Assembly: GCA_964551335.1 (NCBI GenBank)
Contig: CAZKCO010000025.1
Location: 12,134 to 76,133 of the forward strand
Length of the DNA: 64,000 bases
Source: an uncultured Roseivirgaceae bacterium
GTDB taxonomy: Bacteria > Bacteroidota > Bacteroidia > Cytophagales > Cyclobacteriaceae
Direction: 5' to 3'
A program made the position numbers and the translations under genes. The notes below the pieces were generated by a model. That model had not been told where the DNA came from. It saw only the letters and a list, made by a program, of their open reading frames with translations, and ran no database searches. Position 1 is the stretch's first letter, and each line of letters opens with the position of its first letter. Positions 49,469 through 55,540 of this stretch are shown here, one piece after another.

Positions 49469-50581
49469 ATGCAAACCTGCCAGACCAACAACATACTAAT
49501 TTATCTTCTGTTAAATACATTTCTGCTCTCATCTTGCCGTAATCTTGCTCCCTTAGATGCTAATTATCCCACGAATCCGATAGCCCAAGAAACACCAGCT
49601 TACCGGGATAAGCAAGGTACCGTAATTATAGATATCTCGCTGCTTTCAGATCGGCTTACACTACCGGTTGCTGTGTACCACGGCTACTCCCCCGAGCAGA
49701 TCAACCTCACTCAGCCTATTGGGATGACCCACCACTACACTTTTCTCTGGAAACCGGAAGACGAAGCTTATCAACATTTTTTCACCCTGGTGGACACCAC
49801 TGGAAAAGAAGTAACTATTGCCGAACGGAGAATTCACTTCAAGGGTACCGATAATACCCGAGATCTGGGCGGATACCGCACAAAAGATGGGCGAACCGTC
49901 CGTTGGGGAAAACTTTACCGCTCAGATGATCTCAGCAACCTGACCAAGTCTGACTGGAACTACTGGAAGAATGTTGGCATCCGCACCGTTATTGATTTTC
50001 GTGAACCAGAGGCTCTGGAAAGAAAGCCGGACAATCTACCGCAAAACAATTCACCCAGAGTTCGCCACCTGTCAGTTTATGACACGGCTACTACTCGTAA
50101 GGAGTATAGACAACTACTTCAAAAGACTCAGCCTGATGAATATAATACCGAACAAATTCTAGTTGACAACAATGAGCTCTACGTAAAACAATACACTGAT
50201 AGCTTTGCTTTGGCAATTCAGGAAGTCCTTGTACAAGACGAGCCGTTACTTTACCACTGTTCAGCAGGTAAAGACCGTACCGGTTTTATGAGTGCCATGC
50301 TGCTGCTAACGCTGGGTGTACCCAAAGAAACGATCATGCGAGATTATATGGCGTCCAATTATTACCGGCAGAAACGCATTAGAAAAAGAGCGAATTTAGG
50401 CCCATTGATCGGAATCAACCCTTACACTTCCTTGCCTTTACTAGAAGTTCGTCCCATATATTTGGAAACAGCATTTCGTACCATAGAAGAACAGTACGGT
50501 TCTCTGGACAACTATATCCGGGAAGGATTGGGGATTTCCGAGGCAGAACAGGAAAAATTCCGTCAGGAATATCTATTTTAG
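49469..50581 (+). CDS. Cys-based protein-tyrosine/phosphoinositide phosphatase lipoprotein (IphP/MptpB-like)
   Basis: Lipobox LSSC; NTRDLGG, LYRS, IDFR, HCSAGKDRTG P-loop, DYMASN. Confidence 0.9.
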   Translation: MQTCQTNNILIYLLLNTFLLSSCRNLAPLDANYPTNPIAQETPAYRDKQGTVIIDISLLSDRLTLPVAVYHGYSPEQINLTQPIGMTHHYTFLWKPEDEAYQHFFTLVDTTGKEVTIAERRIHFKGTDNTRDLGGYRTKDGRTVRWGKLYRSDDLSNLTKSDWNYWKNVGIRTVIDFREPEALERKPDNLPQNNSPRVRHLSVYDTATTRKEYRQLLQKTQPDEYNTEQILVDNNELYVKQYTDSFALAIQEVLVQDEPLLYHCSAGKDRTGFMSAMLLLTLGVPKETIMRDYMASNYYRQKRIRKRANLGPLIGINPYTSLPLLEVRPIYLETAFRTIEEQYGSLDNYIREGLGISEAEQEKFRQEYLF

Positions 50582-50585
50582 TGTC

Positions 50586-51755
50586 ATGCGCTCAACAACT
50601 ACTGCCGTCAGCATACCTAAAAAAGCCGCTCAATTAGTGGAATCCGAATTTGGTAGACATGATACCAGCTCTTTGTTTTACCATAATTTGAAACACACCA
50701 AAGAGGTTGTGACTGCCGTTCGTACTATTGGTGAAGGTTGTCAGCTTAGTCAGCCGGAATTGGATATTTTGGTTACTGCAGCCTGGTTTCACGATGTCGG
50801 TCATCTGTACCCTAACGAAGACCCCATTCCAGTTAGCGTAAAGTTTGCTCAGGACTTTCTTTCTAAGGAAAATGCTTCACCCGAGTTTATAGAACAGGTG
50901 ATAGGTTGCATTAGAGCAACTGATATGCCTCAAAAACCTCAGGGCTTATTACAAGAGATTATTTGCGATGCCGACATGGCTCACTTGGCGGGTAAGGACT
51001 ATGAATTTTGGGCCGAAGCTCTTCGTAAGGAACGCAAACTCATATCTAGCAAAAAGATTAAAAGAGAGAAGTGGAATGCTGAGAACCTTAAGTTCTTCAA
51101 AAATCACCACTACTTTACTGATTTTGCAGAAGAGCACTTTGGTCCCGGAAAAAACAAGAACTATCTCTCTCTTAAGGCTAACCTAGCAACTCGAAAGAAA
51201 AAAACGACTAAAAAATCCAAGGTCCCTAAAGGCGGCGAAGTCATGTATCGAATTGTGATGCGTACGCATATGGACCTGAGCGCCATAGCTGATACAAAAG
51301 CCAATATCATGATCTCTGTTAATGCCATATTGTTATCAATACTGGTTACGGTGCTCTTTCGTCGTATTGAGGAATATACTGCCTACTGGTTGCCTGGAGT
51401 TATTTTAACAATGGTTTGTTTGCTGACTATTGTGTTCGCCATTTTAGCAACACTACCTCAGGTAACCCAAGGAAGATTCCGTAAAGAGGATGTCATGAAA
51501 AACCGGGCCAACCTGCTGTTCTTTGGCAACTTCTACAATATGACCCGTGATGACTTTGAGTGGGGAATGCAGATGATCCGGCAAAACGATGATCTGGCCT
51601 ACGGTAGTCTCACGCGTGACTTGTACAATCTTGGTCGGGTTCTAGCCCGAAAATACAAAATGTTGCGGGTTTCCTATCTAATCTTTGTAGTCGGACTGGT
51701 AGTTTCAATAATTTCGTTTATCGCAGTTGCTTTAGGCAAAGTCAATGTGATGTAG
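50586..51755 (+). CDS. HD-domain phosphohydrolase fused to a Pycsar-effector-like (PycTM/DUF5706) membrane domain
   Basis: YHNLKHT, AWFHD, CDADMAHL; then ADTKANIMISVN, 2 TM, NLLFFGNF, KYKMLR and a final TM. Confidence 0.85.
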   Translation: MRSTTTAVSIPKKAAQLVESEFGRHDTSSLFYHNLKHTKEVVTAVRTIGEGCQLSQPELDILVTAAWFHDVGHLYPNEDPIPVSVKFAQDFLSKENASPEFIEQVIGCIRATDMPQKPQGLLQEIICDADMAHLAGKDYEFWAEALRKERKLISSKKIKREKWNAENLKFFKNHHYFTDFAEEHFGPGKNKNYLSLKANLATRKKKTTKKSKVPKGGEVMYRIVMRTHMDLSAIADTKANIMISVNAILLSILVTVLFRRIEEYTAYWLPGVILTMVCLLTIVFAILATLPQVTQGRFRKEDVMKNRANLLFFGNFYNMTRDDFEWGMQMIRQNDDLAYGSLTRDLYNLGRVLARKYKMLRVSYLIFVVGLVVSIISFIAVALGKVNVM

Positions 51756-51793
51756 CAAATCCCATTTTGCCGGTTTCTTAATAGATTAACAAT

Positions 51794-54700
51794 ATGATTC
51801 GGTATGCCTTCTCACTTTTATTTTTGATAGGTCAATACTACTCTGCTACGGCTCAGACCACCCAAGCTGACACTGTAGAATTTAGCCTGTTTTTTCTTGG
51901 AAATACGGCTGATCCAGCCAACGAAATTTCAGAGTCCACTCTCGCTTTATTACAGCAGAAACTTCAGACGGTTGATCATCCCGCTACCCTGCTACTTCTC
52001 GGTGATAATGCTAGTTCGGTAGGTTTACCCGACCGCGAAGAAGCTGAATATCAAGTGGCAGAAAATCGACTTCTATCTCTGCTTAATATTTCAGAAAATT
52101 TTAATGGACAGGTGATTTTTACTCCTGGCGACCGGGACTGGGATCATGGCGGACAAAATGGTTTGACTTACATCTTAAATCAAGGAAACTATCTGGAGTC
52201 TCAGGGAAGTGATCAGGTGCTCTTCCTTCCGGGTGGAGGCTGCCCAGGCCCTTACGAAATTTCCCTGAGTGAAAATATTATATTGGTGGTCATTGATACT
52301 CAGTGGTTTCTTCATACCGGTGATAAGCCTTTGGAATCCTCCGACTGTGGAGCCGCTTCTGTCTCCGATATTGTGGATCAGTTAGAAGACATTCTATCCC
52401 GAAATAAGGATAAACATATTGTCGTAGCGACTCATCACCCCATCTATTCCTATGGACCTAGAGGGGGGCGTTCTCCACTCAAGTATCATTTGTTTCCGTT
52501 CACTGCCCTCTCCGATCCCTTGTATATACCTTTGCCCCTGGTAGGCTCTCTTTATCCGTTATATCGAACTTTGGGAATAAACACCCAAGATCAACACCAT
52601 TATCGCTACCAGATACTTCGTAAATCCCTAGACAAAATTTTAGACCGTGACCATGCCTTGGTGCACATTTCCAGCCACGAGCGCTCCCTCCAGCATATCC
52701 GCCGAGGTAACAACGATTACATTGTCAATGGAGCATTTTCTGAAGCCACTTATGTAAAACAACATCAGAACACGCAATTTGCTGCCTCCAAAATTGGGTT
52801 TGGAGAAATTAAATTCTACCGAAATGGCTCGGCAGAATTACTATTCTGGAACAGTAGCCAGCCAGACCAGCCTCTGCACCAGCAGGCTTTACTAACCACA
52901 TTTTCTCCTTCTACCCAAATTGTTAATCAACTCAATCTAGATTACAGCGATAGTACAATAACTCGAGAAGCCAATACTAAGTATCTGGCAAGCAATAGTA
53001 AAATTAAGTTTTACGGAAATAACTACCGCACCGAATGGAGCCTGCCGACTACTTTCTCCTATTTTGATATCGGAAAAGAGAAAGGTGGTCTTGAAGTAGT
53101 AAAACGAGGCGGAGGCGGACAAACTTTGTCTCTTCGGCTGGAAGCCAAAGACGGCCGACAATACGTTCTCCGTTCAGTGGATAAATACCCCGAACGAAAT
53201 ATTCCACCGTCATTATCCAGTCCGTTCATCAACACGGTGTTGGGTGAAGTGATTTCTGCTTCTCATCCCTACGCTGCCCTGGCTATTCCGCCTATGGCTG
53301 ATGCCATTGGAGTGTACCATACTAACCCCAAAATTGTCTATATCCCCGACGACCCTCGGCTGGGACAGTACCGAGGCACCCACGCCAACACATTGGCTTT
53401 ATTTGAGGAGAGGCCGGATGATGACTGGTCGGACGCTGAATATTTCGGGAGTTCCGAAGATATTGAGAGCACGCCCAAGATGCTGAAGGATTTACGGGAG
53501 GATAACGACAATGAGGTAGATCAGCACTTTTATCTCAAGTCCCGGCTGTTTGACCTGATTATTGGTGACTGGGACCGGCATGCCGACCAATGGCGATGGT
53601 CTACGCAGGAGAAGGATACCAGCGACGGACGAATCTTCCGTCCGATTCCTCGCGACCGAGACCAAGCTTTTTTTGTCAACGAGGGCTTCTTCCCTAGCCT
53701 AGCCTCTCAAAATTTCGTTCTCCCGCCCATTCAAGGTTTTGATGCTGAAGTGCGGGATGTAACCCGGCAGTGGGTAGCCATGGTTCAATATCTGGACCGT
53801 CGGTTGCTAAATAACCTATCCTACGAAGATTGGAAATCAATAGTAGACGAAATACAGCGCAGGTTAACCGATGAAGCTATTCAGACCGGAGTTAATCGAA
53901 TACCTGATACGGTATTTCAGGTTTCGGGGTCAAAAATTATTGAGAATTTAAAACAACGACGCGACGACTTGGAAAAATACGCTCGAACCTACTATCAGTT
54001 TCTTTCCGAAAGTGTAGACGTGGTTGGCAGTGATAATAAAGAGCGTTTCCAAGTTGAAAGGTTAGATAATGAGCGGACTCGAGTGGTAGTGCATAAGTTG
54101 AGTAAAAACAAGGAGAGGGTAGAACAAAAACTCTTCGACCGCATCTTTTACACCAATGAAACCAAGGAGATTCATCTGTACGGCTTGGGCGACGACGATG
54201 ATTTTATCGTTAGTGGAACTACTGAGTTAGGCATAAAACTCAGGATTATTGGGGGTGAAGGAAAGGATGAAATTACCGACCGCTCTTCAGTAAATGGATT
54301 CTCAAAGAAAACTTTAGTCTACGATACACCCGAGGGAGTAACACTGAATTCAGGGCCCGAAACTAAGAAAAAACTTTCGCGGAAAAGTGAAGTAAATCGT
54401 TACGACTGGGGAAGTTTTAAGTATAACTATTTCAGTCCATTAATAACTGCATCTTACAATCAGGACGACGGCATTTTTCTGGGTGGAGGGTTTTTGTATA
54501 AACATCAGGGCTTCCGTAAGTTGCCTTTTGCCAGTAAACATAGCCTTTCGGCTAGCTACGCTTTTGCTACCAGCGCCTTCAACGTTGCTTACAGCGGTGA
54601 GTTTACCGATGTTATCGGGCGTTCTGATCTCCTAGTAGACTTAGATTTTAAGGCCCCTAATTACGTTAACAATTACTTCGGGTTAGGCAACGAATCAGTT

Positions 54701-55540
54701 TATGATCCTGACCTACAGGACATAGATTTTTATCGGTACCGGTTTAAGGAATACGATGTAAGCGCGTTACTAAAGACCAACCTGACCCCCTACCAGTATC
54801 TGGCAGTGGGTCCAGTATACCGCAGTATTGTGGTACAGGCTACTGAAGATCGCTTTATAACTGACTTTCCCAACAATGGGCTTGACCCGGAAACTGTATT
54901 CGACTGGCATGAATACGCCGGAGTTCGGCTGCAGTATGAGTTGAACCGGCTGAACAATTTTACTCCTCTCCGGAACAGCGGAAACGGGGGGCTGGGTGGT
55001 GCGCTGGCTAATTTACAGCAAAATAGCCTACCAACCCGAGGGGTTTTCTGGCAGGTAAACGCCGATTTGTTAGACGGGCTAAACAGTGTATCCCCGGAGT
55101 TTTCCCAGCTATCTTCCAGTTTTACATATTTATGGAGCACCCGCGCCCCCTCAGTACTTACTCTGGCTGCCAGAATCGGGGGTGGTCATATCTTCAGTAA
55201 AGATTTCAGGTTTTTTCAAGCTCAACGGCTAGGAGGATTGACCAACCTGAGAGGCTATCGGCGTACTCGCTTCTACGGCCGTAGTAGCTTTTACAGCAAC
55301 CTGGAATTCCGCCTCCGAGTAGCTCAGTTTCGAACGTACTTTTTTCCAGTGTACTTTGGGGTGATCGGATTTAACGACATCGGTCGGGTTTGGCAAGATC
55401 AGGAAAGCTCTCAGGTGTGGCATCACGGTTACGGAGGTGGAATTTACCTGGCTCCGTTTAACGCTCTAGTATTCTCCGCCGTGTGGGGCTTTTCGGCAGA
55501 AGACAGCTTGCCTATCTTTAAGTTAGGCTACTTCTTCTAG
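51794..55540 (+). CDS. Multi-domain outer-membrane protein: calcineurin-like phosphoesterase, kinase-like domain and Omp85/BamA-TamA barrel
   Basis: GDN, GDRDW, HHPI, SHE motifs; GGGGQT...LFDLIIGDWDRH...RDRDQAF; NLRGY loop; C-terminal LGYFF. Confidence 0.8.
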   Translation: MIRYAFSLLFLIGQYYSATAQTTQADTVEFSLFFLGNTADPANEISESTLALLQQKLQTVDHPATLLLLGDNASSVGLPDREEAEYQVAENRLLSLLNISENFNGQVIFTPGDRDWDHGGQNGLTYILNQGNYLESQGSDQVLFLPGGGCPGPYEISLSENIILVVIDTQWFLHTGDKPLESSDCGAASVSDIVDQLEDILSRNKDKHIVVATHHPIYSYGPRGGRSPLKYHLFPFTALSDPLYIPLPLVGSLYPLYRTLGINTQDQHHYRYQILRKSLDKILDRDHALVHISSHERSLQHIRRGNNDYIVNGAFSEATYVKQHQNTQFAASKIGFGEIKFYRNGSAELLFWNSSQPDQPLHQQALLTTFSPSTQIVNQLNLDYSDSTITREANTKYLASNSKIKFYGNNYRTEWSLPTTFSYFDIGKEKGGLEVVKRGGGGQTLSLRLEAKDGRQYVLRSVDKYPERNIPPSLSSPFINTVLGEVISASHPYAALAIPPMADAIGVYHTNPKIVYIPDDPRLGQYRGTHANTLALFEERPDDDWSDAEYFGSSEDIESTPKMLKDLREDNDNEVDQHFYLKSRLFDLIIGDWDRHADQWRWSTQEKDTSDGRIFRPIPRDRDQAFFVNEGFFPSLASQNFVLPPIQGFDAEVRDVTRQWVAMVQYLDRRLLNNLSYEDWKSIVDEIQRRLTDEAIQTGVNRIPDTVFQVSGSKIIENLKQRRDDLEKYARTYYQFLSESVDVVGSDNKERFQVERLDNERTRVVVHKLSKNKERVEQKLFDRIFYTNETKEIHLYGLGDDDDFIVSGTTELGIKLRIIGGEGKDEITDRSSVNGFSKKTLVYDTPEGVTLNSGPETKKKLSRKSEVNRYDWGSFKYNYFSPLITASYNQDDGIFLGGGFLYKHQGFRKLPFASKHSLSASYAFATSAFNVAYSGEFTDVIGRSDLLVDLDFKAPNYVNNYFGLGNESVYDPDLQDIDFYRYRFKEYDVSALLKTNLTPYQYLAVGPVYRSIVVQATEDRFITDFPNNGLDPETVFDWHEYAGVRLQYELNRLNNFTPLRNSGNGGLGGALANLQQNSLPTRGVFWQVNADLLDGLNSVSPEFSQLSSSFTYLWSTRAPSVLTLAARIGGGHIFSKDFRFFQAQRLGGLTNLRGYRRTRFYGRSSFYSNLEFRLRVAQFRTYFFPVYFGVIGFNDIGRVWQDQESSQVWHHGYGGGIYLAPFNALVFSAVWGFSAEDSLPIFKLGYFF

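Follow-up and report, generated by a model that had tools for sequence, protein, structure and literature searches.

A predicted protein kinase-like domain between a phosphoesterase-like domain and an Omp85-type barrel in a Bacteroidota protein family

The present analysis concerns a large gene in a stretch of 64,000 nucleotides of DNA from an uncultured Roseivirgaceae bacterium, referred to throughout as the window. The gene is located at 51794..55540 on the plus strand, as are all other features of the window described here, and comprises an uninterrupted open reading frame (ORF) for a protein of 1248 amino acids (aa), P0001 (translation of 51794-55537). P0001 starts with a signal-peptide-like N-terminus (MIRYAFSLLFLIGQYYSATAQ, 51794..51856), recognised by reading the sequence. 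It is followed by a purple-acid-phosphatase-like metallophosphoesterase (MPE) domain (51872..52975, aa 27-394), which is degenerate in this protein and is assigned by Pfam Metallophos and by the matches of a family profile to the Protein Data Bank (PDB). The C-terminal end is formed by an Omp85-type β-barrel (54404..55537), identified by NCBIfam and likewise by the family profile against the PDB. In between lie the main subject of this work, a predicted protein kinase-like (PKL) domain (53036..54013, aa 415-740) that would consist of N-lobe strands, a catalytic loop, a metal-binding loop and a C-terminal helical bundle, and a β-rich domain (54014..54403, aa 741-870).

From four short motifs the initial annotation of the window had proposed that a kinase fold resembling those of FAM20, PI4K and CotH is hidden inside this protein. 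All four motifs are present as quoted, all lie inside 53040-53760 (aa 437-627 of the P0001 translation), and they are situated between phosphoesterase and barrel as claimed, i.e. between the match to Pfam Metallophos (aa 51-223, score exactly at the cut-off) and that to NCBIfam Omp85_fam NF047779 (aa 1076-1248, E 4e-23, at 82.6 bits under the 200-bit full-length cut-off). They comprise a Gly-rich loop (KRGGGGQTLSLRL, 53102..53140, aa 437-449) between the first two N-lobe strands; a β3-like strand YVLRSVDK (53162..53185) with R460 and K464, of which YVLRS corresponds to aa 457-461 (53162-53176); a catalytic-loop-like segment (LFDLIIGDWDRHADQWRW, 53546..53599) with D587, D592, D594-R-H596-x-D598-Q599-W, of which LFDLIIGDWDRHADQW covers aa 585-600 (53546-53593); and, directly after a β-hairpin, the segment PIPRDRDQAFF (53642..53674, aa 617-627) with R620, D621, R622 and D623, which would be equivalent to the DFG motif of kinases.

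The fold of this region was modelled twice with AlphaFold2, once for aa 391-880 with an alignment of 42 sequences (model 1) and once for aa 415-740 alone with 50 sequences (model 2). Both models are of high predicted quality, with a mean predicted local distance difference test score (pLDDT) of 88.2 and a predicted template modelling score (pTM) of 0.90 for model 1 and 88.5 and 0.88, respectively, for model 2. In Foldseek searches of the PDB all of the top 50 matches of either model are PKL structures. The best match is CtkA of Helicobacter pylori (3akk/3akl, E 6e-6 and 1.3e-5, probability 1.00), and others are a 'bacterial kinase complex' (7vkb), HipA (3dnv/2wiu/3hzi), Rio2 (4gyi) and Fam20C (4kqa/4kqb/5yh0), the probabilities for Rio2 and HipA being 0.98-1.00 with both models. 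PINK1, HipT (7ab4), COQ8A and PI4K-II-alpha (4pla/4yc4/5eut) are found as well, and mTOR and ordinary eukaryotic kinases appear lower in the lists. The order of secondary structure elements in model 1 is also kinase-like, running from strand, Gly loop, strand, strand and helix through to helix, catalytic loop, hairpin and DxD. Strands E44-48 and E54-60 flank the sequence GGGxQT (aa 439-444), the catalytic-loop segment comes after a long helix (H187-200) and before a β-hairpin as in kinases, and D621 and D623 directly follow the hairpin strands E210-216 and E223-229. Because the top-50 lists hold PKL structures only and because the elements follow one another in kinase-like order, aa ~415-740 are predicted with high confidence to adopt a fold of the PKL superfamily. 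Judged from the models, the domain is structurally closest to bacterial HipA and CtkA, followed by Rio2, Fam20C, PINK1, COQ8A and PI4K-II-alpha. The anticipated protein-kinase-like structure is thus borne out by both models, whereas the proposed likeness to FAM20, PI4K and CotH holds in part: Fam20C and PI4K-II-alpha are indeed among the fold matches, but CtkA and HipA are closer, and CotH is missing from the top 50 of either model and was therefore ruled out as the closest relation.

Several observations speak against this assignment or limit it. The TM-scores of the Foldseek matches are only 0.41-0.49 with both models, below the usual mark of 0.5 for a shared fold, and the domain would therefore represent a divergent branch of the superfamily. 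Sequence comparisons give no support of their own. Residues ~400-870 of P0001 are matched by no sequence in the PDB and by no entry of Pfam, NCBIfam or PHROGs, scans of the domain together with 43 relatives against the latter three collections leave the middle region unmatched, and phmmer and hmmsearch against the PDB matched the MPE domain and the barrel only. Alignment with hhalign to E. coli HipA, or to a HipA profile of 13 sequences (E. coli hipA plus 12 matching HipA-like ORFs from 30 Bacteroidota loci), is non-significant (E 0.3-0.6, probability <1%), and membership in HipA_C is therefore not claimed. This alignment places GGGxQT on the P-loop of HipA, D594..Q599 on D309-G-H-A-K-N314 and D621 on D332. 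The equivalences proposed for the motifs are based on topology and on this alignment, which is not significant. Since every sequence-based test of membership failed, the domain is not filed under HipA_C, PI3_PI4_kinase, Fam20C or CotH, and its placement is a structural prediction.

Among 264 relatives with 39-91% identity, conservation within the protein is highest in the four motifs. G439, R460, K464, P492, D587, D592, R595, D621, R622 and D623 are invariant in 264/264 sequences, and G440/G441, Q443, T444, W593, D594, H596, D598, Q599 (replaced by Asn where it is not kept), W600, R601 and W602 are retained in 94-99%. In the Gly-rich loop, G440, G441, Q443, T444, S446 and R448 are kept in 93-99% (G440/G441 in 95-99%), and D485, in the helix that follows β3, is kept in 96%. 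The conservation of the DRH and DxD residues that had been expected of a genuine kinase-type site is borne out by D594 in 251 (95%), H596 in 260 (98%) and D598 in 252 of the 264 relatives, by Gln (253) or Asn (11) at position 599 and by the invariance of D621 and D623. The whole set of D592, D594, H596, D598, Q599, D621, D623, R460 and K464 is intact in 229 of the 264, and D594 is present in all 191 of the MPE-containing full-length forms examined. As the motifs are conserved in so many relatives, their resemblance to those of kinases reflects strong selection rather than chance. The domain thus appears to keep a full site of the nucleotide-, metal- and phosphoryl-transfer-binding type, made up of GGGxQT, R460 and K464, D592-W-D594-R-H-x-D-Q599 and D621-R-D623. 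The designation of YVLRS as β3-like needs to be qualified, since the segment does fall in a strand of model 1 (E66-74) but has Arg at the β3 position, with the Lys four residues on.

A separate observation in this region is a weak PADLOC match of aa 578-604 (window 53525-53605) to positions 135-161 of the 293 of the profile of a candidate defence family, PDC-M03A (E 3e-4, 18 bits), which is not interpretable.

The state of the neighbouring phosphoesterase domain differs from that of the PKL motifs. The family profile matches mammalian purple acid phosphatases (PAPs) in the PDB, and the consensus of 191 relatives keeps GD, GDNxY, GNHD, HHP and GHEH, that is all five PAP motifs including the Tyr of GDxxY. 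In P0001 these motifs read GN, GDNAS, GDRD, THH and SHER. Five of seven ligand positions are replaced (D37N, Y74S, N113D, H114R and H297R), all of which are kept in 75-78% of the 191 relatives, and the same five losses are found in P0003, which is 91% identical to P0001. At the level of the fold, the match of the domain to phosphoesterases stands. Because of these replacements the phosphatase domain of P0001 is probably dead while the PKL motifs beside it are intact. The MPE domain is missing altogether from many members of the family.

C-terminal to the PKL domain, the β-rich domain corresponds to strands E350-469 of model 1 (pLDDT ~90), contains conserved motifs and is matched by no Pfam model across aa 741-870. 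It occupies the place of the POTRA domains of other Omp85 proteins; a Pfam POTRA match was found neither in P0001 nor in the 43 relatives. Two conserved GGxGxD-like turns in this domain (LYGLGDDDDF and IIGGEGKDEI) resemble those of RTX-type calcium-binding β-rolls. The family profile matches the barrels of BamA as well as 9ccg in the PDB, the best sequence match of the barrel being 9ccg, a 675-aa 'POTRA domain-containing protein', and not BamA; on the barrels of relatives PF01103 and PF03865 are matched. The predicted signal peptide, in whose place some relatives carry lipoboxes, together with the barrel show P0001 to be a putatively exported protein with an outer-membrane anchor. The signal peptide would export the PKL domain and the C-terminal barrel would tether it to the outer membrane, with the β-rich domain serving as linker.

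Relatives of the domain are numerous. With aa 390-800 as query, 4783 proteins were retrieved in a word-indexed search, mostly of 1200-1250 aa and from Cytophagales and other Bacteroidota, and in an exhaustive HMMER search with aa 400-720 the domain is matched by 2207 clusters of 50% identity. Of 201 genomes sampled from the phylum, 82 (42 of 109 genera) carry the domain, in one to five copies each. At least 591 species-level genome matches were confirmed, and the best 80 of these are all from Bacteroidota except for one Rhodothermales metagenome-assembled genome. Where the relatives are named at all, their source labels read 'metallophosphoesterase', 'BamA/TamA family outer membrane protein' or 'Surface antigen (D15)', just as the initial annotation had supposed of such proteins. 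Three architectures are seen, namely MPE, PKL and barrel combined, PKL and barrel in proteins of ~870 aa, and stand-alone proteins of ~500-540 aa that consist of PKL and β domain and carry a signal peptide or a lipobox. This Bacteroidota-wide family has the PKL domain as its constant core; MPE domain and barrel are optional.

A few members deserve separate mention. One locus (L071, G155:C27, 7861-12511) contains three stand-alone PKL paralogues of ~530-590 aa in tandem, each with a β domain and without a barrel, in a genome that holds five copies of the PKL domain overall. In a Flavobacteriaceae-like locus (L046, 8214-11938) the gene is split into an 814-aa ORF for MPE, PKL and β domain and a separate 385-aa ORF for the barrel, which may reflect a frameshift or a fault of the assembly, or else a true variant with two genes. 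Four stand-alone lipoproteins (P0140, P0178, P0198 and P0261) have a common C-terminal aromatic motif (FDANGWLLRYYLYN and similar), Ser in place of the Asp of DRH and, with the exception of P0178, Asn at position 599, and by their sequences would constitute a distinct subfamily.

We found no description of the domain or of its architecture in the literature on Omp85 proteins with phosphoesterases, on atypical kinases, on PycTM/DUF5706 and on 9ccg. The main text of the Omp85 survey of Heinz and Lithgow (2014) contains neither of the words 'Metallophos' and 'calcineurin', the word 'kinase' not having been part of that search. We rate the protein as a new family and a new architecture inside the known PKL superfamily. 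Its setting is unprecedented in that the predicted kinase-fold domain is extracytoplasmic, is fused to an Omp85 barrel in the place of POTRA domains and often stands beside a purple-acid-phosphatase-like domain.

Upstream of the P0001 gene, and separated from it by a gap of 38 bp, lies a gene whose product combines an HD phosphohydrolase with a PycTM membrane domain (50586..51755; Pfam PycTM 2e-31, HD 2e-5; PADLOC PycTM / 2TM effector). It is preceded, with a gap of 4 bp, by a gene for a Y_phosphatase3 tyrosine-phosphatase-family protein (PTP) with a lipoprotein-like N-terminus (LLSSC; 49469..50581; PF13350, 4.5e-67), which also shows a weak PTPlike_phytase match. In a scan for promoters and terminators the counts were at the level of shuffled sequence, and no convincing terminator was found inside 49469-55540. 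To place these genes, 43 related loci of plus or minus 10 kb around the gene were compared. The PTP gene has no homologue in these 43 loci and is therefore a window-specific addition to the module, whereas a homologue of HD-PycTM or of PycTM alone is found in ~26 of them. The idea of a three-gene phospho-operon was accordingly rejected in part, with HD-PycTM as the conserved partner and the PTP gene as unique to the window.

Across the 201 genomes, 69 have both a PKL and a PycTM gene, 13 have PKL only, 10 PycTM only and 109 neither, and in 49 of the 82 genomes with a PKL gene, which represent 13 of the 19 taxonomic families having one, a PycTM gene lies at most 6 kb away. Two further types of gene recur in the 43 loci. 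In ~15 a PF06977 'SdiA-regulated' β-propeller gene is found immediately upstream and often overlaps the start of the PKL-Omp85 gene (for example L033 5130-6029 and L034 5105-6001), with weak NHL and Phytase-like matches; in the window this position is taken by the HD-PycTM and PTP-like genes. In ~17 loci a gene with a cyclase domain is adjacent. In Flavobacteriaceae-like loci PKL-Omp85 is followed by a class III cyclase of 654 aa, which contains FlgO-like and TPR regions, and then by a PycTM protein of 189 aa; this cyclase-PycTM pair is directly downstream of PKL-Omp85 in L046 (11975-14579) as well as in L038, L039, L045, L047-L050, L063, L073 and L074. A Catalinimonas locus has in addition a response-regulator cyclase, a histidine kinase and a cNMP-binding protein, and a polyphosphate kinase and a phosphonate-binding protein are encoded near a Reichenbachiella locus. 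A canonical Pycsar defence island was considered for the window and rejected, as there is no cyclase and synteny of the genes extends over several taxonomic families. The synteny of PycTM with PKL-Omp85 over 13 families argues for a housekeeping role rather than for that of a mobile Pycsar defence effector.

What, then, would a kinase-type site do beyond the inner membrane? In view of the 95-100% retention of the catalytic-type residues, we consider it most likely that the PKL domain is an active enzyme of the phosphotransferase type that acts on an envelope substrate, and not a relic, and give this reading a probability of roughly 0.55. Two features of the site speak against it. The position of the classical β3 Lys (that of VAIK) is occupied by the invariant R460, with the invariant K464 four residues on, and the Asp of DRH, D594, is replaced by Gly in eight and by Ser in five of the 264 relatives, all 13 of which lack the MPE domain. 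In addition, the periplasm is not known to contain ATP, which leaves the donor for a classical kinase reaction unexplained. These same points would fit a pseudokinase or ligand sensor whose pocket binds a nucleotide, a cyclic nucleotide or a phosphorylated envelope molecule and which relays the state of the outer membrane or periplasm by protein contact to the cyclase-TPR and PycTM(-HD) proteins. Such a sensor could dispense with an ATP pool and would tolerate the loss of D594 in 5% of the family while the rest of the pocket is invariant; the many invariant Arg residues fit anion binding, and the tight linkage to signalling-type genes (cyclase-TPR and PycTM, and in one locus histidine kinase and cNMP-binding protein) is what one would expect of it. 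Pseudokinases, however, usually lose the very residues that are retained here, i.e. the catalytic Asp (95%), Gln or Asn at position 599 (100%), DxD (100%) and the Gly-rich loop, and D594 is kept without exception in the 191 MPE-containing full-length forms examined. We therefore regard a mere sensor as possible but rather unlikely.

Where the domain is placed bears on two further explanations. The N-terminal domains of Omp85 proteins lie in the periplasm unless they are translocated, and the conserved partners of the PKL protein reside in the inner membrane. By analogy with the former and in view of the latter, a periplasmic orientation of the PKL domain is most likely. The barrel might instead export MPE and PKL domain to the cell surface, as in type Vd autotransporters, so that a secreted kinase like Fam20C or CotH and a phosphatase would act on external substrates. 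An Omp85 barrel preceded by enzyme domains is the layout of type Vd, the best PDB match of the barrel is not BamA, the barrels of 15 of the 43 relatives have ShlB/FhaC-type Pfam matches, and the GGxGxD-like turns of the linker resemble Ca-dependent extracellular β-rolls. Against such a passenger stand the inner-membrane location of the conserved partners, the lack of a detectable POTRA domain in any of the 43 members and the existence of stand-alone PKL proteins without a barrel, some of them lipoproteins. The residues of these after the Cys (CVGNRF, CSSHFA, CSRDGI) moreover lack the acidic Bacteroidota signal for surface export. Display at the surface thus seems quite improbable to us. Still further from the evidence is a role in the scavenging of organophosphates such as phytate, in which the PKL domain would bind inositol phosphate or polyphosphate and feed the PAP-like MPE domain, the 'phytase-like' β-propeller protein and, in the window, the PTP-like lipoprotein. 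It is true that the PAP-like MPE domain, the PF06977 β-propeller (weak Phytase-like match) and Y_phosphatase3 (weak PTPlike_phytase match) belong to three fold classes that contain phytases, that PI4K-II-alpha is among the fold matches, that the pocket is rich in Arg and that the genes near the Reichenbachiella locus concern polyphosphate and phosphonate. But every phytase-type match is weak and under curated cut-offs, many members, P0001 among them, lack the MPE domain or have an inactivated one, the PTP gene is confined to the window, and the partners with the strongest conservation, PycTM and cyclase, are not transport or Pho genes, all of which makes scavenging very improbable.

Returning to the active enzyme as the preferred reading, the PKL protein would work in a module with the inner-membrane PycTM protein, with or without HD domain, with class III cyclase-TPR proteins and with a periplasmic β-propeller, and we infer that it is physically coupled to these neighbours. 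The conservation of this module points to a part in signalling across the envelope that is linked to cyclic nucleotides, or else in maintenance of the envelope. It has to be set against this that the statistic for the co-occurrence of PKL and PycTM genes (Fisher test, p 3e-29) is not corrected for phylogeny, and that a cyclase gene is absent from the whole of the 64-kb window. In its most specific form the proposal would be that an active, periplasmic, outer-membrane-anchored kinase-fold enzyme with a non-classical donor is the outer-membrane arm of a trans-envelope pathway whose inner-membrane components are the class III cyclase with its TPR sensor and PycTM(-HD), such that parts of the Pycsar type serve housekeeping envelope signalling and not phage defence. 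As a complete scheme we consider this unlikely.

Thousands of Bacteroidota proteins labelled 'metallophosphoesterase' or 'BamA/TamA family' would have in common an unrecognised core of kinase fold that is strongly conserved, and definition of the PKL family would close an annotation gap across a major phylum. A kinase-type site beyond the inner membrane, where there is no known ATP pool, raises the question of the donor and is informative on the biochemistry of the envelope whether the site is active or not. With enzyme-like domains and a β-rich module in the place of POTRA domains, the protein also represents a new solution among Omp85 proteins. Finally, the linkage to PycTM and class III cyclases suggests that components of anti-phage Pycsar systems are also employed, throughout the phylum, in a chromosomal function that is connected with the outer membrane.

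Among known systems, the kinases HipA, CtkA and HipT (HipA_C, PF07804) provide the best Foldseek matches (3akk, 3akl, 3dnv, 2wiu, 3hzi and 7ab4, probability 0.98-1.00) and share with the PKL domain the order of Gly-rich loop, D-x-H-x-x-N/Q loop, hairpin and metal-binding Asp. The similarity is limited, however, by TM-scores of only 0.27-0.48, and hmmscan with the HipA_C model found no match among 43 members even with an E-value limit of 10. Unlike HipA, the PKL domain has additional invariant Arg and Trp residues (R595, W600, R601, W602, R620 and R622) and a C-terminal helical bundle. Moreover, kinases of the HipA type are toxins of the cytoplasm that come with an antitoxin, whereas the PKL domain is predicted to be exported and is fused to an Omp85 barrel.

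Precedents for kinase-fold enzymes that work outside the cytosol are Fam20C (PF06702) and CotH (PF08757). Fam20C is matched by the PKL domain in Foldseek (4kqa, 4kqb and 5yh0, probability 0.96-1.00) and has a similar 'DRH' wording of the catalytic loop. Yet the Golgi lumen, where Fam20C operates, is supplied with ATP, and assembly of CotH proceeds from the cytoplasm of the mother cell, whereas for the Gram-negative periplasm a source of ATP is not known. PI4K-II-alpha (4pla, 4yc4 and 5eut, probability 0.93-1.00) ranks below HipA and CtkA; its motifs DRGNDNW and IDNGLAF resemble DRHADQW and RDRDQAF of the PKL domain. Pfam matches to PF00454, PF06702 or PF08757 are found neither in P0001 nor in the 43 relatives.

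The gene neighbourhood recalls Pycsar, as the neighbours encode 2TM domains of the PycTM type (PADLOC 7e-17 to 2e-20) like those of Pycsar effectors. The cyclase of many relatives, though, is of class III, has only weak similarity to PycC and carries FlgO-like and TPR regions. PycTM is here fused to HD or stands alone, the genes are kept in synteny over 13 taxonomic families instead of being dispersed in the manner of mobile defence islands, and an Omp85-PKL partner is not part of the described Pycsar systems. In its overall plan, P0001 agrees with the type Vd autotransporters PlpD and FplA and with BamA, TamA and TpsB, all of which likewise combine a C-terminal Omp85-type barrel with soluble N-terminal domains, and with type Vd it also shares the enzyme-like nature of the N-terminal part. 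Neither a patatin nor a POTRA match is present in P0001 or the 43 relatives. Instead of the patatin lipase of type Vd, the soluble part of P0001 consists of the MPE and PKL domains, and the POTRA domains of Omp85 proteins are replaced by the β-rich domain with its GGxGxD-like turns.

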